From NCBI GenBank assembly GCA_001938485.1, contig MQRK01224568.1, positions 1 through 64,000 on the forward strand: DNA of 64,000 bases, in the 5' to 3' direction. This DNA is from Girardia tigrina (lineage: Eukaryota). The notes under the pieces were generated by a model that worked only from the letters and a program-made list of their open reading frames with translations, was not told the origin of the DNA and searched no databases. A program made the position numbers and the translations under genes. Of the stretch, positions 1 to 27,200 are shown in pieces (positions within the stretch are counted from its first letter, which is position 1; each line of letters opens with the position of its first letter).

Positions 1-301
1 TAATCAATTATTAAAAGTTAAATAATCACTTTAAAATTAAACTAATATTTCATAAATAATATTTTAATAATAATTTCTTAAAATAAATAAAAAATATTTT
101 AAATTTCAATTATAAATAAATTTTGTAATAATTAAATTGTATTTTAAATTTGTTTGAATAATAAGACTTTAAAGAATATTATTAAAGATTATTAATCAAG
201 AACGATAACGAGCTATGCCAGTTTTACGGAGAATTGTTGTAGTGACAATTCAAATTGTGATAATAATAAATGTAAAGGAAACTCAATTAATGTTCTTAAT
301 A
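1..301 (+). mobile_element. Solo LTR family A, copy 1 (5' end outside window)
   Basis: Ends ...gttcttaata; 3' 97 nt encode (I)TSYASFTENCCSDNSNCDNNKCKGNSINVLN. Confidence 0.7.
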
Positions 302-679
302 GGACTAAAATTTTAAAAATAAAGAACATGGTGAATGGAGAAAGAAAAGTTTAAATTTGGGTACTAGAAAATATAAGTTCTTTAAACCTCTCAACTTTAT
401 TAGAAAGTCAATGGTTGCACTTGGAAAAGTCCCCGACTGAAATGATAAAAGTTGCTGCAATCATTCAAATTTCGTCAGTATTTTAGTTTAATATTGTCTC
501 TTAATTTTCATCTTTGAACTTTTTTTATAAGAAATTTGTTATACCTTTCTATTATCCTTTATGCCTTATTACCATTGAAGCAATACAAAACTTGTATAGT
601 TATTAGATTTGTACAAATATTTGAAAAACGGGGATAAGTTATCTTTAAAATACAAGAAAGGATCATCAAAGTTGGTTGA

Positions 680-1049
680 TGTGATAAATTTCTGAATTGT
701 TTGTTGTTTTATAATTTGCATGTTGTATGTTGATTCGGATTGTGTCTCTCCTACACAGATGGATGATTGGTATTTTCTTTGATTCCTACTAATTGAAAAT
801 AATTTAATTTAATTCGTACTTCTTTGTTTTTAAAAATTTTTAGATTCGATTTTATTCAATGAAAGTTTGTGATAATTAATTTATATTATAAATATTTTTC
901 ATTTGTTTTCAAAAAATAGGGTGACGCACTGAAAAATATTAATCAAGAAAGATGTCGTGTAGTGAAAGTGATTTGAAGAATTGTTGTAATGATAATTCTA
1001 TTTGTAATAATAATAAAAAGTTCGAAAAATCATATTGATGTTGTTAATA
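680..1049 (+). mobile_element. Solo LTR family A, copy 2, inserted in an inverted Penelope tail
   Basis: tgtga...gttaata; conserved tgtgtctctcctacacagatgg motif; diverged TSD gttga/attgc. Confidence 0.7.
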
Positions 1050-1050
1050 A

Positions 1051-1091
1051 TTGCGATTAATTTCTATGCAACAATCTTCATCATCAGGCAA
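1051..1091 (-). ncRNA. Minimal type I hammerhead ribozyme, helix II decayed
   Basis: Minus strand: ttgc-CTGATGA-t-(poorly paired helix II)-GAAA-ttaatc-gcaa; perfect 4-bp helix I. Confidence 0.6.
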
Positions 1092-1576
1092 AACTATATA
1101 AACTAGAAACTGAATAAAATATAATAAAATTTGAAATCTAAAAATCCTTTCTGAGTCATGTAAAATAGGAAGTATATTTCGCAGTAAATCCACCACTCAT
1201 ATTGGTTTACGTTTCAATTTAGTTTATCAGTTTAAATGTAATGGATGTGATGCCCCATACATCTGAAAGACATGTCGTGATTTCTGTAAACGAATTCAGG
1301 AACATAATCAAAAAGAAGGTGAGTCACATTGCTCAACATAGAAAGAAATGTTTTAGATAGTATAGTAGATTTAAGTAATTTTAAAATGTTGTCTTCACAA
1401 GTTGATAATTACAGAGAGAAGGTAATATATGAATCAATGATAATTAAAAAACTCAATATGTAAAAACCATCTTCTTCTACTTTATTGAAAATATTCCGAG
1501 GTTTTATGGATTACGAAACGATTACATAAACATTCCTTCGATATATAAAGGTCAGTTTATCAGTATTCATTTAGTT

Positions 1577-1617
1577 TCGCCTTATGGTGACTGTTGATCC
1601 GTCGAAATTAATCGCAA
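1577..1617 (+). ncRNA. Degenerate hammerhead ribozyme (core mutated to CTTATGG)
   Basis: gc-cttatgg-t-gactg.ttgat.ccgtc-GAAA-ttaatc-gc at the Penelope 3' tail. Confidence 0.5.
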
Positions 1618-2297
1618 TAAATTTTGATGATCGTTTTTTGTCTTTTATTTAGATTAATTTCACGTTCATACATTTAAGATTCAAAAAGGCTTTTTATATA
1701 CTCTTACATATGTATATATTATGTACGTACATAAAACGATTAAAAACATGTAGTCTTAATCAGTTCATAAAATTAAACATGTCCCATTATTTATAATAGT
1801 TTGAAGAAATCGTTTAGACTCAATCTTCATAGAATTAGCGTGGAATGTAAATTCTAATCTTCACAAACAATTAAATATTCAAAAGCAGTACTCAATTCAC
1901 AGTCTACTAAAACATGCTTTAGTCATTTAATATAGGTTGAGGCCTCGGAATTGTTTTTAATTTGTACTTCTAGTATGTCTTCCTTATTATAAATGTTATC
2001 TGAAAGTTTCACGTAGTTTAACCCTAATCCTAGCCTTAATTCTTGTCAAATACCAATAATTATTAAATTTTTCTTTCATATAATAATGCAGTCCGCTGTT
2101 AGAGTTGATGTAACATGTAGTGTACTAAAGTTGGGATAATGTTTTTGGCAGTTTCCTGGAGTGGATAATGCGCGTATCCATGAACTAATTCGATATACAT
2201 TAAACCACAGGCGCAAATTGTGCCTGTCACGGTGTACCTCCTAGAGACCTGCTTGGCTACCAGAGATATGCGGATAAGAAGATTAAGTTTTAGTAAT

Positions 2298-2937
2298 TAT
2301 TGGATTCTTGTTCACAAGACATTATAACGAACACCAAAATTTATTTCTCTAACAATTTGAATTTTTTAAACAAATATTTTTGAGGAACTTTTGTACTTTC
2401 TTTTTTTACACAACCAATATAAATAAAAATAGATATAAATAAAAATATGATTCCTATATTTTTACAAATTAAAATTCAATATTTCCTTAATAAAAAATAT
2501 AGTGAATTAAAATTTTGTCACAAAGATTTTGTTGCGTCTTTTATTAATTTTTCAATTTTATGGAACATTTAANNNNNNNNNNNNNNNNNNNNNNNNNNNN
2601 NNNNNNNNNNNNNNNNNNNNNNNNNNNNNNNNNNNNNNNNNNNNNNNNNNNNNNNNNNNNNNNNNNNNNNNNNNNNNNNNNNNNNNNNNNNNNNNNNNNN
2701 NNNNNNNNNNNCAAATTTGAAATTAACTTTTTTTTTACTTTATAATAAATCTTTACATAAATCTTTTAATAACCCTATCATAAAATTTATTTTATTTCTT
2801 ACTTAAATTAATTTTTTTACATTAAATTTCCGAAATCTTATTTTATCATATCTATAACAATATTTTACGGAATTTAATTGATTGTTTAATAAATTGATAA
2901 AATACAAAAATTTTATATTTTATGAACGTTCCCAACA
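2298..2937 (-). mobile_element. Solo LTR family B (TGTTGG...CCAATA), spans an assembly gap
   Basis: 5-bp TSD gtaat (2293-2297 / 2938-2942); short terminal inverted repeat; ATG near 3' end (MSCEQESN). Confidence 0.55.
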
Positions 2938-3060
2938 GTAATAAAAATATTTTTCTTCATTTTTAAATATTAATAAATAGACTACAAAATATTTGTTTGT
3001 GATTTATAAATATTTTCTTTTGATGATATTTGTATAAATTATGTGAATGATTTTATTTAG

Positions 3061-3234
3061 GGATATTCACATGAAATAATTTGGACCCAACTAGAATCAA
3101 CGATTTTGAAGTTCTTTCCTCAGAACGAAACTGTTGCTCAACTCTTAATCCAGTCTCTCTTGAACTGTTCTCTGAGGCTCAAATGGACCACTGAAAACAG
3201 TCTTTACGAATTACGAAGATTGTTCCTTGATTCA
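3061..3234 (+). CDS. LYST: LYST exon (GYSHEIIWTQLES...RRLFLDS), phase 0/0
   Basis: ttttatttag|gga ... tca|gtaatt; 58 open codons; resembles the helical LYST segment before the acidic loop. Confidence 0.65.
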
Positions 3235-6200
3235 GTAATTTTTTGTCATTTTTTATTCTTTTACGGTTTAGATTTTAATGAATAATTGTCCAACTATAGA
3301 AATCACTTATAATAATTATTGGGTTCTTGATCAACGATAGAATTCATAAAACAAATATTTATTAATGTAACAATCAACTATAATTAATTATTTAGAAAAT
3401 ATGTTTTACTCATAAAAATTCTTTTCAAAAAAATATGGATTTTAGATATTTTTAATTTTCAAATATTCAAAAATGTTTGACTCTGAATGAAAGAAAAACT
3501 ATATGGTAAATTATAAAATTATTGTAGAAAAATGATGAAAAATTGTGGTTGTGTAAAAAAGGTCTTTTAAAAGCACAACTCTTATGTACTGTTCCAAAGC
3601 TTGGACTTTGTCATCCATCATTGCAATCCCTTTATTTGATTTTCCAAAACAAATCAATATTTAGAACCTCATTAGTTCCAATATAATATCACTTAATTAA
3701 AGTTGACCTTTCAAAATGTTAAATTTTGATGAACTATTTAAACATGGTTTTCATCATGATGGTGCAATATGTGTATCGTTTGGATGAGAAGATAGGATCC
3801 TTTCTTCTGTTATCGGAACCTACAAGGATCTGTAAATCGAGGTTTTCGAACAATCAAATGAAGAGAATAGGATGACGGAATCCAGTGAGGGATACGGCAA
3901 AAGAAATGTCATTATGTGCTCAAATACACTCATGTTTACCCAGTTCTAGCCGAAGGGTTCCCGTAGTATCCCAAAATATTCAAAAAGTAGAAAATCAATA
4001 TTTGACCACAATCATTTAGTACTGTTAAAAGGACTTTTAAATGTTGTATTGTCACTTAGATTAAGCTTCTATGTCAGATTTCAGCTTACCAACACATCAG
4101 GAAGTTGTCGAAACTTTGATCACAAGATTTTAAACAAAAGTGTAACAGACAGACAGAATAAATATGTATAGGGGTCGGCAAAAAACATTTCGTTTTAGCT
4201 ACTTCGATGAAATCTTATTAAAATCTAAAAAATTATATTTTAAAACATTTATTTGGGAAAAGTTTATGTACAACTATACTAAAAATGGTAGCAAACCATA
4301 ACAGAGCCTAAAAATACTCTCCATCAGATTCAATGACTCTTTGGAACAGACGTGTAAAATTTAAAACTCGTCTGTGAACTTGACTTCAAATATTTTCGAA
4401 AATCATCACTCACTTCTCCTAAATTACTGAAGTTTTTTTCCATGTCAGTAACATTTGTAGTTCCAGAAGATAAAGTGATTCCGGAGGTTTGTGTCAGGTT
4501 AGTAGACCGTCTAATTTTATAGACCCACAATGTTTTTAAAGGAAGAGTCGAATCAACTGTGTTATGGTAAGTATGGCATTGTCATGCTGAATGACCATTC
4601 CCCAAGCAGGTAGTATTTCTTGAAAGTTCTTTTCTGATGGAATTTTAGATATCTCTCAGCGACAATGTATTTAACGTCGTGAAGAAGTTTGAAATACATG
4701 AATGATTATGAAGAGTTGCATGTAACAATAACAATCATTTTGCCATCCACCCAAACACGGTTGCACTATTTTAGAGGTATGTCTCGAAGGTATATCCATT
4801 TTTAATCAAAGTTTTCCTTAGCCCATTTTTTGATAGCAAATGACTAGAATTTTCTTGTTATTTTCTAGTAATTTCTTGTAACCCATTTCATACAAAGTGA
4901 CTTCTTTCCAAGTTTTTGTTTCAAAATGTGGCGAACATTTGTTTATTCAATTTCTGTGACTCTTGAAATGGCAGGACATCTTAAGTGATAATCTTCTTCA
5001 ATCATTTCAAGCACTTTTATGACAATCTTTTATGCAGTGTTCGTTCTAGGTCTTCCTGAACCTTCTTTTGCTGTACTCTTAAACACTCTTTGGTGATTTA
5101 TTGTACTCTCCGAAGGCTGACAACGGTCTCTGCTCCTTATCTTTAGAGTAGAAATCGATAGATTTCAGTAACTTAAAGGTTATTTCGTATTAAAGATTCA
5201 ACGAAAAACGTTCTGTCGCATTATTTTGCCTTCATCTTTCAAGCTAAATTAGCATATATCGATTTAAATTAAAATTAAATCGATTTATTTAAAATTAAAT
5301 CTTTAAATTAACAGTCTTGATAATGATCTACCGTAAAATATTTACCTAAGAAATTTTAACTCTGATCTTCAAATATTTTCCTATAAAAAAGAAATTTTTT
5401 GCTGGTTCATATTATTAAGAACACCAACATGGGTTTTCGAACTTTTATTTTCAATACAGTTAGAATTATCTTTCGGACAACTCTCAGCAAAACTTTCGTC
5501 ATTCGACATCGTTCTAAATTGATAACTTTTAGTTAATGTTTGTTAATAAACAATTATTCGAACAAATTCTTAATTAATTTCAGATTTTATTTTTAAAGTT
5601 CAAATTTTTTAATTTTAGTAATAATTTTATTTAAAAAATATTTTATGGATAGAAAGAACATTTATTTAATTCAAAACTTAGTTAAAACTATTTATTTTAT
5701 TTAAATTTTAATATGAAGATTTGAAACGATTTAATATTTTTAATGTTTTTAAATATCTTATGCTGTACTTTAAAATGCAAATTATACTCGAATAATTATC
5801 TATCGTGAACATCTAAAATATCAATTTTCCATCTGGGTGGGAGAAACACATTTCCAAATACTAAACTCAACATTCAACATTCAACAAACCAATTTCAACA
5901 TACCAAATTTAAAATATTCCTCACACATATATTTGAGCGTTGCAAATAATTCTTCACTAATGTCTTCCTAATTTATATTCTTGGTAAATGTAAAGTTTTT
6001 TGAAAAAAATGTATTATTCATTACTATAATTAAGTATTATCACTCTTTAGTCAAAATTTAATAGTTGATATATATTATTATTATTACTTGAACTATGATA
6101 ACAAATAAATATGAATAATTATTTATAGATCAATAACCCGTGATGATCCACTGTTATGGAGAATGCCGATCCATCATTTTTATTGATCAACTATAGCTTG

Positions 6201-9200: not shown

Positions 9201-12200
9201 ACTCTGTGAATTTCTTTGGTTTTACCCTCTCTATGTTTTTCTTCAGAAAAATTCTTTGGTTGGTGTAATTGAGATCTGTGTATGTTGCAACAGAAAAGTT
9301 TTACTTCCTTTTAAATATTTTATATTTTTATCGATTCCAAGTTATATTTTTAATTTATCTAAAAATTTTATTACTTCATTTCATTTTATAAATTATTATC
9401 CAAAAGATTAACGCCCTCTGTTCATTGTGTGAATGTAAAACAGTCCTCTTTAGGGCTACAAATTCTGATTGTTAGCGTCATATTATTCCCGAAAATGGAA
9501 TTTTAACGAGATGGGGGTCGGCATCTTTATCACATGAAATGTATATTTTATCAGATATTTTTATGGAAATGATCCAGATTCAAGGTGTTACAAATTAATT
9601 CAATGTGTAATAATAGTATAAAAGTACTACACAAAATACAACAGCATTTCTTATTATATTTTATATTTAATAGAGTTTCTACTTATGAAAAGTTTTAGGA
9701 ATGAGAAGGATGAAATATATTGAAGACATAAGAGTTATCAGAATTACTTGATAAACTTACCCTTTTGAAGGTTCGCCATGAAAACAAATGATGTTGATCA
9801 AAATTCGGATCAATGGATACAACCTACAGGTACATTGGTTTATAAGTTAGCACTGCAAAACAAAAAATTAACAACCTTGACAATATTAATCTGAAAATCA
9901 TAACAACTCTTCTGTCTTCGTCAAATTATCTTTTGGTTATCTTGCAGATTTGATCTCTGTTATCAACAGACACTTTGATCAAGACGAATATCGTTTTATT
10001 TTCCTTTAAAAACGTAATTCTCTCAAATCCAACAGAGACAAGTAGCGATACGCTCTCATTCGCTCTAAATGGTCATTACTAGAAAGTAATAGCTGATCTT
10101 TTTCGAAACTTATTTTAAGACAGATTTATTGCAACAATTTTGAAATTATATGTCCACTTTTATCTAAAATACCTTTTCTAGCCTAGACAGATGAAGGGTC
10201 ACTCAGACTTGTGGTCCTGGTTCTGTACAATTAATCTATGACTATTTGACCCTTATATCCATATCGAGATGATATATTTTCCACATTACTTTATTTAAAC
10301 TTTTCTGAAGAATTATTTTTAATTAAATTTATTAATCTTGAATATTAAAAATAACTTTCATCACATGTGAATTATGAAATTTATTGTGCATGTTTAGTAC
10401 CCTTTAAATATGTTCTACGTCAACCAATAATGAATTCATTTTTAACATAAAAGATTTGGTTGTTACAGTTACTACGTATCTCATCTTGGATTCCAAGACC
10501 TTGAAATGATTTTGTTGGGGTTTCAAAATATAAATTTAAATTTTTAATCAAAAAGTTTTGTAAAAATTTTATTAAAAATAATTCTTTGTTAAAAAATCAG
10601 TAATTTTCGTTTTACATTATTTTAATAAAATTTGTATAAAATTTTTAAATATTTTTAGATTTGTTTTAGCAAACTAATTTTCAAGGTTAGAAAAAACTAG
10701 TATATAAACAATTATTATTTTAGTATTATTCACACAAAATTTCGGACAAAAAATTATACTTGCAGACCCTACTAAAGATTTTAAAACTTCATCATGTATT
10801 ACGGTAATCTTTTTTTATTTAATTGTTGTTAACCAATCTAGTATCCTGTAAAAGAGAAAGATTGAAGTTAGATTTTCAGATATCAAAATTGATATTGATT
10901 TGTGTTGATTGAGTGTGCTTCAAACATTTGATTTAGTGATAAAGTTTCGATTTCAGTTTTGTGCTCAAGTTGTCATTTGCAAATAAAATTTATTAAAAGG
11001 AGTTGTGTTCATTCTTCATATATTATTGTTGGAAGAAACCTTTTGGTCGATTTGGAGTCAGATTAGTAGTTTAATATAAATAAAGATAGAAACGAGATTT
11101 AATTGTAATACCCAACAATTTTCATGTATAGAGTGTCCCGCATATCATTTTGCTTTTTTATGTTTTGTAATTCAAAAAATCTTGTAATGTGGACAACTGT
11201 TTTATGTATTGCAGTAATATCTTCTCTCTCTACTAGATATACGGCTGTTTTCATTTAATAATATGTTCACTTACGCCATACTTTCATCAGTTTTTGAAAT
11301 GCATGGTCGTCCGGTGTGATTTTTTCAGCCATCTTCTACAGACTCTGCCACATGAAATCATTTGACAGTTGATGTACTCTTCGTAAAGTAATACTTTCAT
11401 TACACTCAGTAGTTTCTAATAAATCATATATGTTAACGTCCGTATAACCTTTTAAACTCAAAATTTTACAAGAAAATTCACTCGGTCAACACTCATTTTA
11501 CTTGCACAATAACAATTTTTTACAGAATTCCAAGAATATTCTCTGTAAAAACCAACTCGAATTTAAATTTAATAAATTTAAACAACCACTCAAATATTAA
11601 TGCTTGCAGCCGTTGATTAATGATTTATTTAGAGCCCCTATGTACAACACAGTTATTAATGAAAAAACGAGTAATATACACCCCATAAATTATTTATTCA
11701 GAAATAATGTCTAATCAGTTCTTATAACAAATTCGGGAAGTAAAACGTTGTTGTTTGATCCAATTTACATCGTGTACATCATTACTGTGAGGAATATTTT
11801 AAATTTGGTATGTTGAAATTGGTTTGTTGAATGTTGCATGTTGAGTTTAGTATTTGGAAATGTGTTTCTCCCACCCAGATGGAAAATTGATATTTTGGAT
11901 GTTCACGATAGATAATTATTCGAATATAATTTACATTTTAAAGTACAGCATGATATTTAAAAACATTAAAAATATTAAATCTTTTCAAATCTTCATATTA
12001 AAATTTAAATAAAATAAATAGTTTTAACTAAGTTTTGAATTAATTAAATGTTCTTTCTTTATATAAAATAATTTTTAAATAAAATTAATATGTAAATAAA
12101 AATTATTACTAAAATTAAAAAATTTGAACTTTAAAAATAAAATCTGAAAATAATTAAAAATTTGAAAAAAGATGGCAATTTTTTATTAAAAACAAATAAA

Positions 12201-15200
12201 CGCCATTTAAAAATATATTTTAGGATAATATATTTCGACGGTTTAACCGTCATCATGAGATCACTGATTATGTTCTTTTTTATTGCTTTTACATAAGAAA
12301 ATGAATGATTATGCAATCACTTACGTAAGTCTAATCGAAAACTCTTAACAAATTAGTTGAGAGTGCTGTTTGAACATTGATTTTAGGATCACATGATCTT
12401 ATCAACAATGCNNNNNNNNNNNNNNNNNNNNNNNNNNNNNNNNNNNNNNNNNNNNNNNNNNNNNNNNNNNNNNNNNNNNNNNNNNNNNNNNNNNNNNNNN
12501 NNNNNNNNNNNNNNNNNNNNNNNNNNNNNNNNNNNNNNNNNNNNNNNNNNNNNNNNNNNNNNNNNNNNNNNNNNNNNNNNNNNNNNNNNNNNNNNNNNNN
12601 NNNNNNNNNNNNNNNNNNNNNNNNNNNNNNNNNNNNNNNNNNNNNNNNNNNNNNNNNNNNNNNNNNNNNNNNNNNNNNNNNNNNNNNNNNNNNNNNNNNN
12701 NNNNNNNNNNNNNNNNNNNNNNNNNNNNNNNNNNNNNNNNNNNNNNNNNNNNNNNNNNNNNNNNNNNNNNNNNNNNNNNNNNNNNNNNNNNNNNNNNNNN
12801 NNNNNNNNNNNNNNNNNNNNNNNNNNNNNNNNNNNNNNNNNNNNNNNNNNNNNNNNNNNNNNNNNNNNNNNNNNNNNNNNNNNNNNNNNNNNNNNNNNNN
12901 NNNNNNNNNNNNNNNNNNNNNNNNNNNNNNNNNNNNNNNNNNNNNNNNNNNNNNNNNNNNNNNNNNNNNNNNNNNNNNNNNNNNNNNNNNNNNNNNNNNN
13001 NNNNNNNNNNNNNNNNNNNNNNNNNNNNNNNNNNNNNNNNNNNNNNNNNNNNNNNNNNNNNNNNNNNNNNNNNNNNNNNNNNNNNNNNNNNNNNNNNNNN
13101 NNNNNNNNNNNNNNNNNNNNNNNNNNNNNNNNNNNNNNNNNNNNNNNNNNNNNNNNNNNNNNNNNNNNNNNNNNNNNNNNNNNNNNNNNNNNNNNNNNNN
13201 NNNNNNNNNNNNNNNNNNNNNNNNNNNNNNNNNNNNNNNNNNNNNNNNNNNNNNNNNNNNNNNNAGAGGCTAACGTCGGAGCCAATGGTGAACCCATTGC
13301 AACCCCATCTATTTGTTTGTACCATTCACCATTAAATAGAAAATGGACATTTGAAGTAGCAAATGTTAAGAGTTTTCGAAAATGTCACATACACCGGAGA
13401 GACCACGTCATCTCTGCAAACGAGTCCAAGAACACAGTCAAAAAAGGGGAAAGAGTAATATTGCTGAGCATAAAAAAACGTTTAAATGTAATATGAGCAT
13501 AAATGATTTTAAGATTTTGTGCATTTTAAAAATTATTGGGAGAGTGTCATGTGAAGCATTGTTGATAAGATCATGTGATCCTAAAATCAATATTCAAACA
13601 GCACTCTCAACTAATTTGTTAAGAGTTTTCGATTAGACTTACGTAAGTGATTGCATAATCATTCATTTTCTTATATAAAAGCAATAAAAAAGAACATAAT
13701 CAGTGATCTGATGATGACGGTTAAACCGTCGAAATATATTATCCTAAAATATATTTTTAAATGGCGTTTATTTGTTTATAATTAAAAATTTGTTCGAATA
13801 ATTGTTTATTAAAAACATTAACTAAAAGTTATCAATTTAGAACTATGTCGAATGACGAGAGTTTTGCTGAGAGTTGTCCAAAAGACAATTCTGATTGTAA
13901 TGAGAATAAAAGTTCGAAAACCCATGTTGGTGTTCTTAATAATTACAACATTTGAGACGAATATTCTCTGCATTTTTATTGCCCTTTAAGTTTTATTTAT
14001 ATTTTCATATTTCATTGATGGTCACAAAGGTTTTGTTGGTGCAATATCAATTATTTAACAACAGAAAATTCAGTAAATCATACTTAACAAAAGATCTGTT
14101 GTATTAAACAAAAAGAGAATTTAAAATTTTTGTAATCCAACTCTCTCGTCATGTTGTACAGACCCTGTCGAAGATCCGACCAGAAAAGGGTTATAGTACC
14201 CTCAAGCCAGCAATGCACTAATCAATATTTATTTTTATTTAATACCTTTTAACTATGTAATGTCGACCTATAAAACCTGATTTTACTATTAAATCATCTT
14301 GTTTTAACATTGTTTGTTTATGATCAATTCAATTTAAAAATTCCAATAATTAAAACAACAAATTATAAACTACTGACAATTTTAAGTAAACGGACACAAA
14401 TAAAACAACTGCAATGAAAATTTATAAAATTAAAAATATTTGCGTTTTTTAGAAAAATTTTATCGAATTAATTTGTTTTTTATCATTATTAATTTTTTAT
14501 TTATATATTTTATTTATTGTTTTATTTTATCCCAACTATTTCTAAAGCCATAAAATTGAAATTGAAAAATCATTTCTTTTATTATTGTTTTATTCATTGG
14601 ATTGTGAACGACTGTTGATCGTATGTAGTAGAAGAATCGGGTTTAGACCTTTCCGCAATTTAAAAAAATTAATGTATAATTAAATATATTTAAAACTTTG
14701 AATTACATACCCAAAGATGAAAGAATGTCTTCTTTTGAAAGAATATTAAAACCACTTTTATTTGCAAGAATTATACAAATTGTGACAGCAATTTATGAGC
14801 AGAATGATGTCCGTTAAAAAAAATTAATAGTCAAACATCTCGGTGTAAGCAACGACATTGACTCAGACACCTGAAGTAATAAATATGTGGAGGCATTACA
14901 TCACCTTCACAACTAACAACACCGAGAACCATCAAAGATGCTGGAAATTTTTTATGCATAACCATAGGTACCTCATCATGGCTTTTACACAGCCACCAAT
15001 CACTGTTGCTGTTCACCTTCTGGTCCTGAACAAAGTTCTTCTCGTCTGAGAAAGATGAGATCACAGAGCCGGATTATCCATTGTGTCAACTGTGCCTTGG
15101 CACAGGGCCCCAAGATTTTATGGGGCCCCCTGGACCCAGTCCCAAAAATGTGAAAAATATAAAACTCGTATTTCCGATTTTCCCCTATCTGACTCCGTAG

Positions 15201-18200
15201 TATGTGATTTTTTATTTAAAAAATAAATACGTCACGTCATGACATCATCACTAGTTCTTATTAGCAAGAGAAAATATTAATTTTAATAGATAAATCACAT
15301 TAATATTACAAAAAATTATTTAAAAATATTTATCGATAATCGATCAATCGGAAATAAAAAATGTCAGACAAGCGTGCTTATCTAAGTTGAGCGCTGAAAC
15401 GTAAGCGAAAAGTTGAACGGAAAGAAAAAGAATTAGTTAACAGTCAGAACATGAATTTGTTTAAATTGGGATTTACTGTAACATCGAACACTGTTAACTA
15501 TCAGTCGGAATCGAATATGAGCGTCATAGAAACTGACATGCTTTGTTCAGATTCTCAAAAATTAAACGTAGCTTCCGAAGAAGCTGAAATGTTATTTAAC
15601 TCTGAAGGAATTCATGAAAAAGACAATAGTGGTGAAATTCATTTAATTTAACCTCTTGAGGTTAAATTAAATGAATTTCACCACTATTGTCTTTTTCATG
15701 AATTCCTTCAGAGTTAGTCAAGTGGCTGAAGCGACTGAGGTGGAAAATCAAAACACATATTTGAATATTGAATAATCTTCACAGGATGTTCATGACTTTA
15801 CAAAGGTTGAATTTAGTAATGACTGTGCATTGTGCACTAACATTACTGATAATATTCGTGAATTTTGGCTTAGAAAAGATTCAAATGATTGCCAACATTA
15901 TGATGATGATTTCGAATCTTAGGAAAGAATTTATCCCGATGGTAGAAAGCGAAATTTTTCACGATGTCATTTATTCAGAAAACATGTATCTGATGAAAAG
16001 ATTTTAAGTTCGTGGCTGCTTTATTCACCGTCAAATGGAAGTATATTTTTCTTTTGCTTGTCGACTATTCAAGTCAAATTCAAATTCTGCATTTGTTTCT
16101 GACGATGGATTTAGCGACTGCAATCATTCGACAGCATGCATTTCTCAGCATGAAAATATTATATGTCATAGAGATGCCATGTTAACTTTAGCTACAAGAC
16201 AACAATATGTTGGTACAATAGACGGTCAAATAGAATTAGAATTTACAAAAGAAGTGGATTATTGGCGTAATATTCTAAAAAGAATTGTTGAAGTCATAAA
16301 GTTTTTAGCAGATCGAGGACTGGCATTTCGGGGAAATGATGAGTTGATAAATTCTTCCCCAAATGGTAATTATTTAGGAGTTTTTCAACTATTAAGTCAG
16401 TTTGATCCATTATTAAGTAACCATATTGATAAATATGGCAACCAGAGAAAAGGTAGAGCATCGTACTTGTCATCCACAATATGCGAAGAATTTATCCAGC
16501 TTATGGGTGATAAATTGCTAAAAATTATTTCAAAAGAAATTAAGGAGCAAAAATATTTTTCTGTTTCTGTTGATTCTACTCCAGATCTTAGTCACGTCGA
16601 TCAACTGACTGTTATCATACGATACGTTGATAATTTTCGGGATAAGTAGATAATGTTTCTACCACCAAATTCCAAAACCTGCATAATCGATTATATAACT
16701 TTGTTTTCTTTATCCACCATTGACATCAAACATCTTCTGTCACGATTAATAAGCGAAATCATGTCTCGTGAATAGAAGTCAGAGTATTTGGGAGCGAAAA
16801 CTGATCGAGTTTTATTTTGACATCATCTTCATTTGGAAAATGTTAGTCGGTCTACTTATGACTAAAAACGATGGTAAACAGTAGGAGAAATGTCTGAGCT
16901 ATATGCATATGTTGTAGAATCTTCCAGGCAACTTCTATCAACTCTTCTCTGGTTTTGTTTGTAATAAAAATAATCAATAATTAATTTGCTTTTTATTTCT
17001 TATTTTTTATTATTAAAACAAGCAAAAAGGAGCTTCTAAAAAATTATAAATAGTTCAAAAAATAATATTGTTATCCATTTAAAATAAAATGACTAATTCC
17101 GATTTTATGATTTATTAATTATAACACAATATCCATAATCTCGCCTATTTAATAAGGAAAATAGTGATGTTATATTGACTCACATTTTCAAAGCCTTTTC
17201 ATTGGTTTACACTCTCAAACATACACATACTATCAACATACATTCAGCATACATTCAACATCAGACAAGGAACCTATTTTATTGTATCATCATAACTGAC
17301 TTTACACAATCAATTTCATCAGCAATCACACAATAATTATTGTGTAATTAACCTTAGTTATTTCTGTTAGTAACAAGCAATATTTATTACGTAACTATTC
17401 CTACTCAACAAGTATGATTGCCATTTTTATGGTGTAACAGGAAAAATGTTGAGGTTTTTTTCGGTACCAAACATTTTCAGTATTGTTTTATTATAAAGTG
17501 TAAGTGTAACTTGTTTACTATTTTTGTTCTAGAGAATATGAGTGATCATAACCTTCATGACGTTGACGGCGAAAAGGCTCATGTTTTTATTGATACAAAA
17601 AATAATATGGAAATCAATACAAATTGTTTGAAATTATTTGTGAACATTGTTCTGAATTTTCCTTTTGGCAATCATCGCACTGTTGGACAACAGGCCTTGG
17701 AGTCGGTCTATAGCTTAATAAAATATGTTCCCGATAGATATCAGAAGTCGCTGATTTCTGATGATTTCATGGAAAAAATGATGTATTCTATTGAACGGAT
17801 TCTCAATACTAATGATTCTTCAGGTTTGTTATTTGATACTTAATATAAAGCGGTGTGTCCTAACCTTTTTGTGCCATGTCCCACACTAGTCTACCAAAAA
17901 TTGTTATTGTGCCCTCCACTTCCCTTCCTTTTCTCAGGAATATAATTATACTTAATTTTTGATATTTCAAAATTGATTGTTCATCGAAGTAAAACTAGAA
18001 AATTGTTAAGAAAAAACAGAAAATTTTCAAAATATTGATTAAAGAACGAAAAACTTCGAAAATGAGAAATATTTACCATGAAATATTATTGAATTTTATC
18101 AACAAAATAATTTTTTTAATTTTAATCTTTATAAATAAAGAGATTCTATGAATATTAAATTCTTATATAATTTTATCTTCTGAATTATTAAATTATTATC

Positions 18201-21200
18201 AGAAAGCTATGCTTTCTTGGGCGCTGTCCGCAGCAGCAGATATCGTATGATAATGTTATTAAATCTGCCGCCCGGCGACGGCTGCTGCTATGTCAATGTA
18301 TTAATGATATCGGTGGCAATTAGATTTAATGACATTGTGCCGACAGCGTCAAAGAAAATACAAAGAAAATAAATTTTTCCTTTATAAATTCAAGTCTCAT
18401 TTTGTTACCACTTTAAAAAGGTATAAAAACTAAATAAAATTATTTTTATTGAAATTTTCATTTTTTTATACCTTGATGAATATGTATACAATGGATAAAG
18501 AGAAGACGCGCTGTTTCTAGATAAAAATCCCATTTTCGGGTCAATCATTACTATATATATATATTAAACTAACACACTTTATGGAACGAAGAATTAATTA
18601 AAAAATATTTTACAATAAATGAACTTCATTTTTCTTAAAAATAAAACAAAAAACATCAAATACGATCAATTCTATTCTCGCAAACTAACGATTGGCAGCT
18701 ATCGGTTCCCTTTGAGAAATATATATATTGAAAATATAATTTGATTAAAGCTTTTTTTATATAATTATTGGACATGTTTCGATGTTTATATACATCATCA
18801 GCAGCAATTTTAATACAATTTTAATAGATACATTAACTTAAAAAGGTGTATTACGAATTAAATATTATTATTTATTAAAGTATTATTGGATAATAATGGC
18901 AAAAATATTTTAATTAAAAATTTTAAGTATAAACAAAGTTTATAAAAAAAGCTTTAATCAAATTAAATTTTCAAAATATTAAACTTGCGTTCACAAGACT
19001 CAATAATATATATATATAGATGAAACTTCTCACACTAAATACAATCTACTTAATTTTAGTCTTCACATCAAACTCAAAACAATTATAATTATTGTGAGTG
19101 TATTGTATAGTCCCGTCTTGGTAATACAACTAACTGGGAAAACACTTTCTTGTGAGTAACAATTTTGCCTCTTTCATGCGGTACATCTAGCAATTTCTTA
19201 TGTGTTTACAAGAAGGAATAAAATAATATCAGTGATAAAAAAGTAAGATTTGTTGTGAAATGATTTCGCCTATCGCCCACTAAAAATGATGTTCGCCAAA
19301 CATGTTGAAAATAAATTCAGTTGACGGTTGATGTAAAAACGATTTTTGAAGTCAAAACCTTCGTGTTCAGTGGCGTACCACAATTTCTGGTAAAATTAAT
19401 ATGAAAGAGTTGCATTTTCGATGCGGTTTTCAATTTAAAGAATAAGCATAGAAAATCTATAATGCTCGGTTCAAGCTCGATGACGCATTTATCATCCTCT
19501 CATTTCTGCCACCAACAGAAATTCAACAAAAAGAAACTTTTCAGGTATTCATATAATGAGATTCCCTTCTGTGTTCGTTTTATACTATTAATTTTATTTT
19601 AATTGTGTTGAGTTTGTGAAAACGTGAGTTCATCTTCATCAAAACTAACAGCGGTGAACACGCACATCCGCACATACTTTGTTTTCGAAAAAAGTTTGTT
19701 TCAAAAATGTTTTTTACCGTAAAATTTTCTATGAAATAACACTTCGTTTGATTAAAACTTCAATTTTTCATTATTGCACTATTTCTTCTTAAGAAACCAT
19801 TATAAAAAATGGTGTTCTATCATTAACTTTAACTTAATATAATTTTTTTATAAGTTAAAATTTGGCACTCGAAATGTAATTTAGTCTCCAATCAACATGG
19901 TTATTTGAAAATTGAATAAAATTTAAAATTTTCTGACGACCCCAGAACCTGTGGAATTAGGTACCAAGGAGTTGTGTGGTCGCGAATCAACATCATTTCC
20001 GGCTGATACAAAGATATCATTCATTTATTTTTTCTAAATTTTAAGAAGTTAACCAACAACACTTATTAGATTAAATGATCAATTAAACATTTAGACATTC
20101 TTAGCAAGTGTTTACACTGATTGCGTTAAATCAATAGCGAGTGCGGCTACCGTTGACAGTGATTATCCCACTGTCGCGGTTAGGCATTCAAGTCACCAAA
20201 TTCTTGTATCGTTCCTGAGAAATTTGTTCCGTCCAAACTACTTTGCTTTAGCTTCTAACGTTTTAACTTGTCTCACTCGATACCTTAAAATACCAAGTCC
20301 CAAAAGATAACTTGTTAACTTATTGATTTCCTTCTTTGCAAGACTTTCTCAAGGAAGAGAAATGTAAGCGCGAAATATTTTATTCTAGAAAATGTTTTAA
20401 AGAAAATTGGATTCTGAAATTTAGACTTATCAAACTAAAAAAATATTTTTCGTAATTTAATTTTCTTTGTCTTTAAATTTCCGTGAAACCTAAATCCAAA
20501 TAATTCAACAATTTATCCTTTGGATAAAATAATTCGTTCAGAGTAAACATAAACTTCCTTTTTCTGATTTTTGCCATCCAAAAATTATTGAACAAATTTT
20601 TCGTAAAAGAAATTTGACGTTTGTCAGTTTCTCTGAAGGATTTATTGTTCATGATAACAGAAAAAAATATGTTGTTATATTTTTTATAAAAAATAATTCT
20701 TTATTAATGAATATTAAGTTTCGTCTTTATAAAGAACACTAAAATGATTTTCGATATTTTTATTATTACTAAAATTGATTTGTCCTCACTACAATCATTA
20801 ACAAAACTGTCGTATTGTGAGGAATATTTTTGAATTGTGCTTATTACATGTTGTTGTAGGATTGTGTTTCTCCCACCGAGATGGAAGATTGATATTTTAA
20901 ATGTTTTAAAATGTCGGATTATTTGGACAATTTAAAAATGAAAATGACAACTTTAAAATTAAATTAATAAAACAAAAATAATATTTTTTAAATTAATTAA
21001 AATTATTTAGTACTTTAAATTGTAAATTATTTTGTAAATTAAATTTGTTTAAATAAATAAATATTTAAAAAGAGAATTAAAATTTTTATCAATCAGAAAC
21101 AATGACTAGCTAGGAAAGTTTTCTGGAGAATCATCCTGGTGACAATTTTAGTTGTGATATCAATAAATTTTTTGAAAATCCAATTAGTGTTCATAATACG

Positions 21201-24200
21201 TATGTTTGTATCATTCAATTGATTAATATTACTAATTTCAAATTATCTGAATTCGTTCCTAGAATATTTAAAAATATGACTCACAAATTTTATTAGTAAT
21301 ATTTAAAATTGATTTTAATTATTTTTAATAATATATTTTTAATAAATATAAAAATTAAATTTAAAATTAAAACTTAAATCAAATTAGATAATAAGAATTA
21401 AAATATTATTCAGTCATGTGGTTAGGAAAGATACAATCCCAAATCAACATACAACATTCAAACATTCCTCAAAGTCTTTCAATTACGAAATTATATTTCT
21501 ATATTATTTTGTACGAACACAAAACTCTTTATGCGATATGAGATTTATTCGTACATCTTTCGGTAGAATAGTTTATTTATCAATATATATTGCTGAACAT
21601 AGAAAGAAATGTAAAAGTATTTTTGAGATAAATAATTTTAAGGTTCTGGGTTCAAATTTTACAAATTATTGGGAGAGAGTTGTGTGTGAAGCTTTATTAA
21701 TCAGGACCCACAATCCTAAAATAAATGTTCAAGCGACAATCTAAACCAATTTATTAAAAATATTTAATTAAAAAGCGATTACATGAATTGATTACACAAT
21801 CACTGATTCCATATATATACGTTGTTTTGATCATTATTTGTTTTGTCTGATGATGACGGTGGTCCGTCGAAATTAATCATATGTTTTAAAAATAAAAATT
21901 TTCAAAATTTTGAATGGTGTTTGAATGAATTATTAAAATTTTGCCAAAAACAAAAGATGACAGTTTTTTTCCAGTACCCTTCACACAGAAATCATTTAGT
22001 CAGTGACTTCAGCTGATTCGCATAAATGGCATTTCACATTATTTTGAACTAAATAGGAGTGCTAGAATTGGATTGTATTAAGTGAGAGAAGTTTCGTGTC
22101 TGATATTGACAAATATTTTAATTATCAATGTTTTCATCCCATTATCCAACATAAGCTTTTTTAGTGGTAATTGATTACTGTCTTTATTCCATACGTTTCA
22201 TAAAATGAGACATTCTTTCGTATGATTGGATTATAACGAAAGAATTTAATCTCACCTAGCATTTTTTTAGAAAATTAAAATTTAATATTATAATTTCAAG
22301 AATTAAAATCAAATTAATTTTTAAATTAATTAAAAATCTCTAACCATACATAGAATTTTTAAGAAAAAGGTCAATTCGAAATTACAAGAATGTTTAATTC
22401 AATATTTTAAAAGTATATATTAAAAAGAAAAAAAGTAATTTAAAACCACACAACGATGGAAGCATATTAATTGGTTGAGTTTCTGGAGGAATTTAAATAA
22501 ATCTAACTACTCTTTGGTTAAATTATTTATTTACAGATATAATAATTGCAAATAACTTTTAGCAATTGAGTTTTATTAAGTCGTAACTGATTTTGTGTTA
22601 TTCTGAGAGTCTTTTCGGCTTCGAGATAAATTTTAACGTTTTAAATAATATACCTTACAATATATTTAAATATTTATGAATTAATTCTGATGAAAATTCT
22701 ATTTTTATAGGCGCTAATGTCGCTTTTTCAATTTTTTTATTAGCTCACTTTCATTAAAGAATGTATCGTTGTCAAAAAGGTGTGTTTCGGTAGTGATAAA
22801 AAGTTGATGCAAGTCTAATATTGTTCATATGTGACAAAAAAGTTTGTTTAAACTGCGTTTATACCTCCCACCAATTCAATTTTTGCTGGCATATATGTTC
22901 AGTGGCGTTGCATCCGATAAAATTGTTTTTTGGTAAGTGTTTGCTACAACAATGCCTATATAAGTGCTCTAATTTGTATTCAGTCAATGTGTTCGGAAAG
23001 AATTGAGTAAAGATCAGGAGTACCTTTACGAAAGATGCGAGGCAATAAAGTGTGGCTCTGTTTCCTCCACTTTTGAAAAGAGAGAGCGTGGTAAATTGGT
23101 ACATTCATGATGACTCACAGCAGCAAACAGAATTCTGCGACTTTATGTCTCAACTACGTCACCATCAGAGGAGCTTCTTGTCTTAACAGATCTTAACATT
23201 CTTCTCGTTTATGCGCCGATGTGGTTTCATATAAAATTGAATCCACAGTGTTATCAAGGAGAAAGGCACGTATGGAGCCTGATTAAATTCTCCTGTTTTC
23301 TTCCTGATGGTAGTCGTCATGTTGTGAATGCAGGCGTACAAAGAAATGCTTATTTTGTTCACCCAGAAAATATCATTTGGTCATGCTAGTTGACGAAGAA
23401 AACGAAGTAAGACAAATGATACTAAGAAGAATCAAAGAAGAAAGACGAGGTATGAAGACTTATCGTGGTGTAAGAAGATTTCGCATTCCCTCAATAAACT
23501 GTATAGCTGAGAGCTACTGTGATCTGGTGAATTGGGATGATTGTGAACGAGGAGAGCCTCCATTGCTAGCCAATATTAGTGATGAAGATATTGATGCAGT
23601 CGTAAAAACATCTCAGAAGTTCGAATTTCCGAATATTCCGTGCCACTCTCAAACTTTTGAACGTAATCTCAAACTGGTAACGGAAGCTGTCAGTGCTGTA
23701 CACGGACCTTTGCGAAGAGATGGCTATATCCGAGCTAGACTTCTTTCTAGAAAAGCTGTTCCTATTTATTCCTCTAAGCAGGATTGGAATTTCGATTAAC
23801 ATATCTCAATCTATACTGTAATTATTCACAGTTTCTACTTGTTTTGTTTTTATCCCTATGAGGGGTTAATTTAAATTTTTATCTCGCCTGAATAGTTTAT
23901 TATTTTTTAATTTAAGGGTAAAATATTTTTATGTTAATATGCTTATTCAATATTTTAAAATTAAAAATGATATAATAAAACAACTATTAAAAAATCAAAA
24001 ACGTTTTTAAAAAGTAAAATATTTTTAATGTGTTTCTAAATATTTTAAAAAAATTAAAAATGATATAATAAAAGAAAATCATAAAAAATAAAATTTAATA
24101 TTTAAAAATAAAAAATATCTTTTAATGTATCTATTAAATATCTTAAAATTAAAAATGTCAAGAAAACAAAAATATTAAATATTTATTTATAAATAAAAAT

Positions 24201-27200
24201 ATTTTTAATAAGCNNNNNNNNNNNNNNNNNNNNNNNNNNNNNNNNNNNNNNNNNNNNNNNNNNAAGAAAACAAAAATATTAAATATTTATTTATAAATAA
24301 AAATATTTTTAATAAGCAATTTTAAATAAACTTTGAAATAAATTTTGAAAATAAAGATTAAATAATTTTTGAAATAAATTTTCGAAATAAATTTTCAGGA
24401 TTTTAAAAATTAAATCGAAAAGAATTTAATAGATTAATTTGGGTCGAGATAATTAAATTAACAGGAAAATTTGTTTTAAATATGTGAATTGTTATATAAA
24501 TAAATTTTGGAGTTAAAAAAATGAATCCTGATATTGAGGTTGCAACCACTTCTCACATCCCCTATAACATGCAAATTATATAGAGAATATTTGGTATTAT
24601 AGGGTCCAAATCTTTGATTCATTGGCGGGGGTACTAATAAAAAAAATGTACTTATTTTGTTATTGAATACATTCAAAACATGTTGGGTCAACTTTTTATG
24701 ACTACCGAAAATGGTAATTACAGATTTTTTCATTCGTGATACACCCTAATATATATATATATATATAGTTTTTACGTTTATTTTTATAAATATTTTCAAT
24801 TTATTGAAGAAAAATATATATTTTGTTTATAGTTAAAATTTTATTTATTTAAACAATTATATAACATTTTATAATATACACTACCATTTTAAAAATTTTA
24901 CTTTCTGTGAATTTGGTAATCTTGAATTAAGGGTTATTTGCTTCTTAATTTCAAATTTCACAATTATTTAATTTTAAATAAAGGGATTCAAAAGTATCTT
25001 TTAAATAAACTTGATTAAAACACTTTTATTAAATCCATTTTTGGAAAGTCAATTATGAAATTCGTCGCCCACATTATCAAAACCCCTTCAGCTGACGTAG
25101 AGTCCCAGACTTTATGTACCAAATCTTTAACCCCTTTACCGTGGAAAAAAATGTTTGCCACAATTGTTGCAACTAAATTGCTTTTCTCCAGTGTGCATAC
25201 CTACACATACATGTATGTATGCATAAATCTACACAAACTACACTATGCATAAATTATAATCATAATAAATAAAGATTTATCTGAAGACGAGTTAAGTCGT
25301 GATGTACGGTTAAGCCCAAGATTTCATATGACGAGTTAACTCGTGACACACGGTAAATGGGTTAATCATGTTTCTATTATATGTTGGATCAGAAGCACTG
25401 TCTGTACAACTGTACTGTAATGTACATTGTACACAACGATTATTTCACTCCTCACATTCATGGTTTTCAGGAACTTGCAGATTCTATCTTTTAGTAAAGC
25501 TGTAAAGATAAAACAAATTATTTCTTTATTCAAATGGCATTTTTGCCAATCATTTACTCGTATTCATATCCAAACAAATTAAGTCTCATAAAACTGACAA
25601 ATGATTCTCCAATTATTAGATTTTACATTTTAATTTCAATTGTTAATTTATGTGATCCCCTAAAATTAGCATTATTATGAATGAAACAGATCAGGGACCG
25701 GTAAGATTTATTAGGTTTATACTCTATTAATTAAATACAGCTTCTAGATTATCGGATTATAAAAAAAGTGCAAGAAGTCTTGCTAATATTTATCCTGATC
25801 GTCGGATATATTGGCAATGTCATGATAATATTCACATTAAGATTCGATAAAAAACTTAGAAAATTTACTAAGATGATTTTATTTCAACAAGCTTTATGGG
25901 ATATAACTAACTTGTTGGTGTTCGGGACCACAATGGTACTGGATCTCGTGTATCATATAGACATCAGCAATTTCCTTACTGTATACCTTTCCTGTCTCTC
26001 AACCAGATGCGCAATTTGGTGTTCGGTCACACTCTCCCTTGAAAGAATGTGTCTTGTTCTCTGGCCGATCAAACCTCTTTGGCAAAGGCTCTCATATAAA
26101 CATTCTCTTATTTATGGAGCCCTTCTCGTTCTCGTCCTTGCAGTCATACATTATCCAATGTTGTTAGAAATAAATTCTAATAACAAGTATATTGCTTATT
26201 TAAATTTTACACTAATATGTCTGCCATTTGTAATAATATATGGTTCAAATGTTTTTACGATTAAAAGAATTAGAAAAAGTTCCATGAAAGCAACAAAAAA
26301 TGTCAATAAACATCCTTCACTGTTTGTAATAAAGATGGTTATTGTCATATCATTGTATTACATTCTATCCGCTTTTCCATTGGCAATTTTAGACCTCCTT
26401 GAGAGTGAAAAAGGACCTATATATTCTAATCCCCATACTCGCAAAGTCTTTTACCGGTTCTCGTCAATTATTTATTTGTCAAACAGCGCCATCAGATTCT
26501 ATCTCTACAATCTCGCTACGCCTCATTTGAGGAAAATTATTGTTATTGCTATCGAAGAACTTGGAAAAAAATTTAAAGTATTCAATGGCAAAAATTCACG
26601 ACTTTCCAAATCCACAAATATAAATATAATATAATATATATAAACAATAATTATTACTAGTATTGATACATAATTAACATTATCTTTAGTGAGAGTCGAT
26701 TTTTGTAGTTGATGTAACTAATAAAATTATATATTTCTTATATTTTAAAATTAAAATATTATGAACTTGTTCGGTGGTATGGCGGCATCCATCCCGCAGA
26801 TTTATTACGTCGAGAATGTTTTTGATCAGCTAATGAGTTAAAACTTATTTATCTTTTTCTTTTAAATATCGACACCGTGAGGGGTTTTACCATTTGTAAA
26901 GAAACAGTGAATAAAACATGAATTATAAAATCAATTCATATAATTTTCAATTAAAAACCCAAATAAATAAAGGAAAATTGATGTCTGTTGTATTGGTTAT
27001 GAAAACTGTAGGCATAATTAATTAAATTAAATTAAATATATTAAAAATAAAAGATTAATAATTATGTTGTTTAAATGTGATGTTTTAATAAAAAGAAATA
27101 CAATTTTTAAAAGTGTCTTATTGTTGCGTCTTCAATGACTTTGAATAATTAAAATGAGGAGATTCCTTCGTTGTTCAATAACCCAACCAACCGAATGGCT

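Follow-up and report, generated by a model that had tools for sequence, protein, structure and literature searches.

Solo LTRs of a compact Ty3/Gypsy clade in Girardia tigrina carry a start codon that probably opens the Gag frame

LTR copies in the window

The window (the whole stretch of DNA analysed, 64 kb) is positions 1–64,000 of contig C224568 and begins at the contig start (assembly 1.43 Gb, 255,254 contigs; 27% GC). It contains seven copies of a repeat that an earlier sequence-only reading had described as solo LTRs, and a check of the sequence finds all seven in place. Copy 3 (5413–5925, reverse strand, lineage A) is a solo LTR of 513 bp, running from TGTGA to TAATA, with the TSD ATATG at 5926–5930 and 5408–5412. 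When it was compared with the genome, 40 of 40 scored matches were 95–100% identical. The features of copy 3 described here all lie on the reverse strand. An ATG at 5507–5509, 97 nt from the LTR 3′ end, is in frame with gag in the copies that are linked to gag, and would be the Gag start of the parent element. The frame that it opens, 32 codons and one further base (5413–5509), covers the predicted R/U5 and the att end, and would encode an N-terminal Gag leader, which is unstructured in the model. Codons N-K of this frame are formed by AATAAA at 5444–5449. This hexamer, 37 nt before the end of the LTR and with a GT-rich stretch after it, is predicted to be the poly(A) signal; its role is assigned from the LTR anatomy in the accessible part of PMC3601003. 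Variability is lowest at AATAAA. U3 contains a conserved motif of the TTTCTCCCACCCAGATGG type at 5829–5847, which is common to diverged copies, and copies 3 and 5 agree there at 93% over 43 nt.

The remaining copies are as follows. Copy 1 (1–301, forward strand, lineage B) has its 5′ end cut by the contig start and, as claimed, has ATA instead of ATG at the 97-nt position (205–207). Copy 2 (680–1049, forward, lineage I) has its ATG at 952–954, with a private 1-nt gain that shifts the frame. Copy 4 (11786–13941, forward) is of lineage A like copy 3, with the ATG at 13845–13847 and the TSD ATTAC. Copy 5 (20816–21198, forward, lineage H; ATG 21102–21104, TSD CGTAT) has a private stop at codon 4, copy 7 (31451–31913, reverse, lineage C; ATG 31545–31547, TSD ATAAA) ends in CA, and copy 8 (51897–52338, forward, lineage G; ATG 52245–52247) has a private 3-nt loss. 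The distance from the ATG to the 3′ end is 97 nt in copies 3, 4, 5 and 7, 98 nt in copy 2 and 94 nt in copy 8, and perfect 5-bp TSDs are confirmed for the same copies 3, 4, 5 and 7; the TSD matches at 4 of 5 positions in copy 8 and at 3 of 5 in copy 2. The four peptides given earlier are reproduced, as are the four synonymous and two replacement codons that separate copies 3 and 4. The deviations in copies 1, 2, 5 (the stop) and 8 are each confined to the one copy: most members of the lineages concerned have the ATG at 97 nt and lack a stop.

The 2156 bp of copy 4 are explained by a later insertion of about 1.6 kb (12177–13790), with 235-bp inverted arms (97.9%), an 853-N gap and a short RT-like stretch. 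This insert looks Penelope-like. Related pieces lie close to copy 2 (1222–1613), close to copy 5 (21587–21878) and at 56 kb (55791–56552), and these too are presumably Penelope-like. There are also fragments of further LTRs: the 3′ end of an additional copy at 20728–20814 (reverse, 74–77% identity), the 5′ part of an additional copy at 21335–21465 (reverse), and at 51620–51703 (forward) an LTR 3′ end that belongs to a more distant lineage within the clade and ends as in locus L295; the 5′ end of this LTR in the window was not found.

The parent element

The seven repeats are solo LTRs, and they come from a compact Ty3/Gypsy clade that is present in the genome in thousands of copies. Their identity as LTRs is supported by the linked copies, which have a polypurine tract and integrase upstream and a primer site and gag downstream, and by the 5-bp TSDs. 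The LTR end is followed by TGG within 0–4 bases in 909 genome matches, and a junction pattern covering all close lineages gave 3441; reversed control patterns gave 0 matches, against 570–3441 for the forward patterns. In two of the first 20 genome loci, TGTGA comes directly after RT/RNase H or integrase sequence and a polypurine tract. The integrase and tract in this position fix the orientation of the LTR, which is that of pol, as the sequence-only reading had assumed.

One locus retains two LTRs (463 bp, 97.1% alike) on either side of an interior of 4.2 kb (736–4934), which contains the remains of gag, protease, RT, RNase H and integrase, with interrupted frames. The layout is 5′ LTR, primer site with no spacer, gag, protease, RT, RNase H, integrase, polypurine tract and 3′ LTR. 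Two direct LTRs, a primer site after the 5′ LTR, a polypurine tract before the 3′ LTR and a short TSD are all present. With LTRs of about 460 bp on either side of about 4.2 kb, the element measures about 5.1 kb in all, and it encodes a Gag of 370–397 residues and a pol of about 1050 residues in separate, overlapping frames. The order protease, RT, RNase H, integrase comes from Pfam matches to the whole pol of a relative and to genome pieces (loci L166, L169 and L020). The closest solved RT is that of Ty3 (E 1.4e-31), the next being at 1.7e-21 and retroviral RTs at about 1e-10; the assignment is made at the level of Ty3/Gypsy, above the named animal clades (Mag, CsRN1, Gmr1/Osvaldo, Mdg3/Micropia). 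The LTR starts with TG and ends in CA in lineage C and in distant relatives, and in TA in the other nine lineages. Lineage E has 2650 LTR matches, against 244 that are followed by the primer site (the two patterns differ by one ambiguity), and solo and 3′ LTRs therefore dominate.

The last codon of pol spans the border between the polypurine tract and the LTR, and the stop is formed by LTR bases 3–5 in four of the five loci that show the border; in the fifth, the tract is one base short. The pol frame can be followed through the tract to this TGA at L017:991–1020, L033, L137 and L166:4912–4945. The stop may explain why the LTR always begins with TGTGA. Three Pol proteins from databases end at the same LTR stop, and two more distant ones run a few codons further. 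No family of its own was found in the genome for the metagenome Pol P0019, whose best identity is 39–50%.

The Gag frame across the LTR end

The proposal that the frame crosses the att end and the primer site into gag is borne out: 16 of the 30 loci fetched continue directly into TGGCG.. and the shared frame. This was seen in lineages A–F, H and J, in a sample whose gag-linked copies include none of lineage G (that of copy 8) and one of lineage I (that of copy 2). Starting at the in-LTR ATG, 32 codons fit before the LTR ends. The final A of the LTR is the first base of a Met codon that is completed by the TG of the primer site. There is thus a second in-frame ATG, made of the last LTR base and the primer site, which the sequence-only reading could not see. 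Because of this junction ATG, a start at the in-LTR ATG can only be inferred. Around the junction ATG, position −3 is A and position +4 is G, a context that is favourable by the Kozak rule, and the capsid begins about 10 residues downstream of it. Its presence in 67 of 67 copies is no evidence, because it was part of the search patterns.

Five metagenome Gag proteins (370–397 residues) all include the leader before the junction Met, their starts being the choices of a gene caller. In a model of Gag based on a five-row alignment (overall pLDDT 51), residues 1–42 have pLDDT below 50, and residues 43–200 (about 60–85) adopt a two-lobed capsid fold, for which the top rows are the Copia capsid (Z 11.1), PEG10 (9.8), dArc2 (9.8) and dArc1 (9.2). 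On this model, the leader would be an unstructured extension that precedes the capsid. A zinc knuckle is present in Gag. Pfam gave no family above the cut-off for the leader and the genome gag pieces.

The primer site follows the LTR with no spacer, and in most copies matches the 3′ end of tRNA-Arg(ACG) over 7–11 nt. Seven tRNA-Arg(ACG) genes were found in the genome, at two loci. At L155 and L156 such genes form tandem arrays with a spacing of 429 bp; one gene copy has the anticodon GCG. At several loci (L127–L130, L051, L060, L082, L095, L099 and L140) the LTR end is fused to 13–76 bases of tRNA-Arg with CCA, in place of its own primer site. Several of these fusions have at least 16 bases, and one carries the whole length of the tRNA. 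They would be primer fossils, formed when plus-strand synthesis continued into the primer. A pattern with the spacer one base shorter picked out 26 copies in which the primer region is shortened. Many gag-linked copies (L104–L126) are of this kind: the primer region lacks one base, it often matches the tRNA over 11 bases, and gag is shifted. Possibly reverse transcription repaired these regions towards the tRNA copy.

The distance from AATAAA to the LTR end is 37 nt (40 nt in lineage F), and the GT-rich stretch comes after it. Together with a T-rich U3, this is the LTR anatomy given for animal Gypsy elements in the part of PMC3601003 available. The ATG is 60 nt upstream of AATAAA and therefore lies in the predicted R, not in U5 as had been proposed. 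In the short-LTR relatives, the ATG is downstream of AATAAA.

Contigs from two RNA libraries cover the leader and gag, and one (run X6) spans the in-LTR ATG, the junction and gag; these are assembled contigs only, in which graph contigs may be falsely joined and DNA may be present. Runs X14 and X15 gave 0 and 1 contig. Among the contigs of runs X5 and X6 there was no splice or trans-splice joint at the AG before the ATG, and neither poly(A) nor a leader was found among the loose RNA ends listed for these runs, which have 171 and 3 further ends. A search for the poly(A) site via retrocopies, with the lineage A pattern, gave 0 matches.

Conservation of the ATG and of the open frame

The distance from the ATG to the LTR end was measured in 200 copies from 10 lineages. 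It is at the modal distance of the lineage in 173, of which 155 have the ATG, so that the pattern is no accident. The distance is 97, 94, 79 or 67 nt according to lineage, and is always in frame. Relatives with about 78% and about 67% RT identity also have an in-frame ATG, at 76 nt in the former (exactly 76 in 9 of 12 distinct copies) and at 16 or 19 nt in the latter, the short-LTR relatives (9 of 13 copies; the other 4 are without that ATG). The earlier claim of a conserved ATG distance thus stands as regards the frame, but a fixed 97 nt does not hold genome-wide, the range being 67–97 nt in close lineages and 16–76 nt in relatives. Private length changes are multiples of three in only 7 of 27 cases.

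No stop is shared by more than half of the copies in the gag frame in any of the 10 lineages; among control frames, frame +2 has 4–11 shared stops and frame +1 has 0–2. A neutral simulation on a tree of the seven lineages of equal length, with 1.38 substitutions per site, gave a probability of 0.005–0.008 that all stay open, which is approximate, since the model is a simple AT-biased one. Of the stop alleles, 14 are found in a single copy, 3 in two copies and none in three or more.

The residues behave differently. The leader had been described as a conserved protein, but its pN/pS between lineages is 0.86 [0.60–1.24], against 0.30 [0.20–0.43] in Gag, the two sets being partly of different lineages; the ratio near 1 that the sequence-only reading had named as counting against it is therefore what is found for the leader. 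The leader value is raised by constraint on its own synonymous sites. Divergence at codon positions 1, 2 and 3 is flat in the leader (0.41, 0.39 and 0.36), and is 0.25, 0.22 and 0.54 in Gag. A comparison of shared with single variants gave p = 0.18 for the leader and p = 0.03 for Gag. Neither pN/pS nor shared versus single variants detected protein-level selection on the 32-residue leader, and the invariant N-K codons are explained by the AATAAA signal. The ATG and the open frame are conserved, and the residues are not.

Bases −1 to −3 before the ATG have a variability of 21–27%, compared with about 12% just upstream. This peak could mark a transcription start site too close to the ATG for the ATG to be used.

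Lineage E was considered as one that had lost the upstream ATG, since 8 of 16 copies in a first sample were without it. This was overturned by larger counts, made by eye: the ATG is kept in 89 of the first 100 listed of 2650 LTR matches, and in 86 of the first 100 listed of the 244 gag-linked matches. The early excess of ATG loss, and an apparent 5′-LTR bias, arose from small samples. Among the matches listed, 12 of 14 ATG-less copies fall within the first 26, which have low contig numbers, seven of them with ATT on three backgrounds. This may represent a subfamily, recombination or an assembly effect.

A lineage with dead gag

Lineage K provides a natural control. It has at least 74 junction matches, in which a decayed gag start is followed by shared non-coding sequence (L116, L151 and L220–L248). 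In 14 of 15 loci there is no pol match within 0.9–1.5 kb, and the remaining match is on the opposite strand. Judged from its sequence, lineage K is probably a mobile non-autonomous derivative. Its ATG is in frame in only 2 of 16 measurable distinct copies (6 more were not measurable), yet the ATG triplet is retained in 13 of the 16. Since it is kept despite loss of the frame, the triplet may also be a promoter letter.

Use of the in-LTR ATG

On the basis of the frame, its distances and its decay in lineage K, we consider it likely that the in-LTR ATG, where the Gag frame opens before it crosses the end of the LTR and the tRNA-Arg primer site into the capsid, is the Gag start. Transcription would begin a short way upstream of this ATG, and ribosomes starting there would have to read 22–32 codons. 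The codons of the leader would be dictated by the poly(A) signal, the GT-rich element, the att end and the primer site, and selection would therefore maintain the ATG together with a continuous, stop-free frame, and would not act on the residues. Some ribosomes may leak on to the junction ATG. Recombination between LTRs would leave the ATG and leader facing random host DNA, as a by-product.

The strongest competing explanation is that Gag starts only at the junction ATG. The upstream ATG would then belong to the promoter or initiator and would coincide with the RNA start or precede it; its open frame would be a relic. A relic frame, however, should gain stops and frameshifts over 1.38 substitutions per site, and the probability that it would stay open is that given above. 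There are moreover seven different ATG distances, all in frame, and the frame decays exactly where gag is dead. We consider this explanation unlikely for these reasons, even though it accommodates a leader pN/pS of about 1, the favourable context of the junction ATG, a capsid fold that starts only at residue 43, the variability peak just before the in-LTR ATG and the ATG kept in lineage K.

The sequence-only reading had suggested that every solo LTR leaves a promoter-plus-start cassette pointing into host DNA. Such a cassette exists as sequence, but what it would read from the host is short: in the 66 copies that are not linked to gag and have an ATG and an open leader, the read-out has a median of 9 and a maximum of 68 codons, and it is 4–29 codons in the window. 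There is a precedent in mammals, where MT/MaLR solo LTRs donate a promoter and a start codon to host transcripts via a splice donor, and are expressed. The present solo LTRs resemble these in having an ATG that points downstream; they differ in being known here from sequence alone. It seems very improbable that the frame is kept because the cassettes make useful peptides or N-termini from host DNA. In most solo copies the ATG and 32 open codons do face the flank, and some RNA contigs (5 and 3 in number) run from an LTR end into non-element DNA, but these are of low depth and could derive from DNA or pre-mRNA. Private stops and shifts accumulate freely in solo copies (a stop is present in 18 of 173 copies), AATAAA lies inside the LTR, and conservation is explained by gag. 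ATG-bearing solo LTRs aimed at random host DNA are a by-product, and nothing suggests that they make useful host proteins.

It is scarcely credible that the repeats are not LTRs but MITEs, SINEs or Burro fragments with a chance frame, as might be suggested by the TG...TA rather than TG...CA ends in most lineages and the poor terminal inverted repeat, since the polypurine tract and integrase upstream, the primer site and gag downstream, the 5-bp TSDs, the gag-linked loci and the two-LTR locus refute it.

If the in-LTR ATG is indeed the Gag start, a further proposal can be made, which we regard as doubtful. A clade with no untranslated spacer at either end may make two forms of Gag from one RNA, a long form from the in-LTR ATG, with a Cys-rich leader derived from the poly(A) signal and the att end, and a short form from the junction ATG. 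How particles assemble, or how the element restricts itself, would depend on the ratio of the two forms; the solo LTRs, in their thousands, would place ready translation starts across the host genome.

Comparison with known elements

The clade shares with Ty1 of S. cerevisiae (Ty1/copia, Pseudoviridae) a primer site inside the GAG frame, a short primer match, separate overlapping gag and pol frames and many solo LTRs, and probably also a GAG start upstream of the primer site. In Ty1, as described in the accessible parts of PMC4974528, PMC5454406 and PMC9283973, the 5′ UTR is 53 nt and the primer site, with a 10-nt primer match, is at nt 94–104, in GAG. Unlike Ty1/copia, the clade has integrase as the final pol domain, and its RT is nearest to that of Ty3. 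It also differs from Ty1 in that its primer is tRNA-Arg(ACG) rather than initiator tRNA-Met, its 22–32 LTR codons overlap the poly(A) signal, the junction makes an in-frame ATG, and pol stops inside the 3′ LTR. With Ty3 and animal Ty3/Gypsy elements (Metaviridae) it shares the order PR-RT-RH-IN, the capsid fold, zinc knuckles, a 5-bp TSD, AATAAA with a GT-rich stretch, and a T-rich U3 (PMC3601003, in part). The Ty3 primer site adjoins an untranslated 5′ region, according to the available text of PMC4974528; unlike Ty3, the clade has no untranslated spacer at either end. In its layout the clade would work like Ty1, but it belongs to Ty3/Gypsy and not to Ty1/copia. The accessible text of PMC8532177, PMC5131818, 10.64898/2025.12.11.693146, PMC12471100, PMC12801592 and PMC7175516 has nothing further on this comparison.

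Burro, a giant planarian Gypsy element, is described in the accessible part of PMC6431247 as having an interior of up to 25 kb and a polyprotein of close to 5000 residues; accessory domains are a further mark of Burro. The present clade is like Burro in being a Gypsy LTR element with thousands of copies, probably in a similar host. An origin from Burro is ruled out by size, the interior being 4.2 kb as against up to 25 kb (PMC6431247, in part). In the literature searched, in which subscription papers and Repbase were thinly covered, neither this family nor any Gypsy gag that starts inside the LTR was found. A possible link with microsporidia was considered as a lead for the clade. On this lead bears the available part of PMC4202319, which describes single-polyprotein Ty3 groups and, for planarians, exchange of DNA transposons only.

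A Ty1-type layout is thus found in an abundant animal Ty3/Gypsy clade. Four signals (the start codon with its leader, the poly(A) signal, the att end and the primer site) fall within the same 100 bases, and the stop of pol lies in the other LTR. It would be a clean case in which an open frame is selected and its residues are not, with a built-in control in the lineage that has dead gag and a decayed frame. In practical terms, a Gag annotation begun after the primer site would lose 5–32 residues. The family would also escape LTR finders that insist on CA termini or on an extended primer match. For new host frames, the solo LTRs with their ATG could serve as raw material in thousands of copies.

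Other features of the window

A single-exon frame of 299 codons at 25735–26634 (forward strand) matches the rhodopsin-family 7TM receptor model (E 8.6e-10). Remains of DNA transposons are found at 28163–29820 (a DDE_3 transposase between 233-bp inverted repeats), 43078–44225 (a mariner-type transposase) and 16008–16649 (a DUF4371 frame). Four exon-like open frames on the forward strand (17418–17843, 32521–33093, 37238–37708 and 61664–62044) have no Pfam match above the cut-off, and may belong to one long host gene with LTR copies in its introns.
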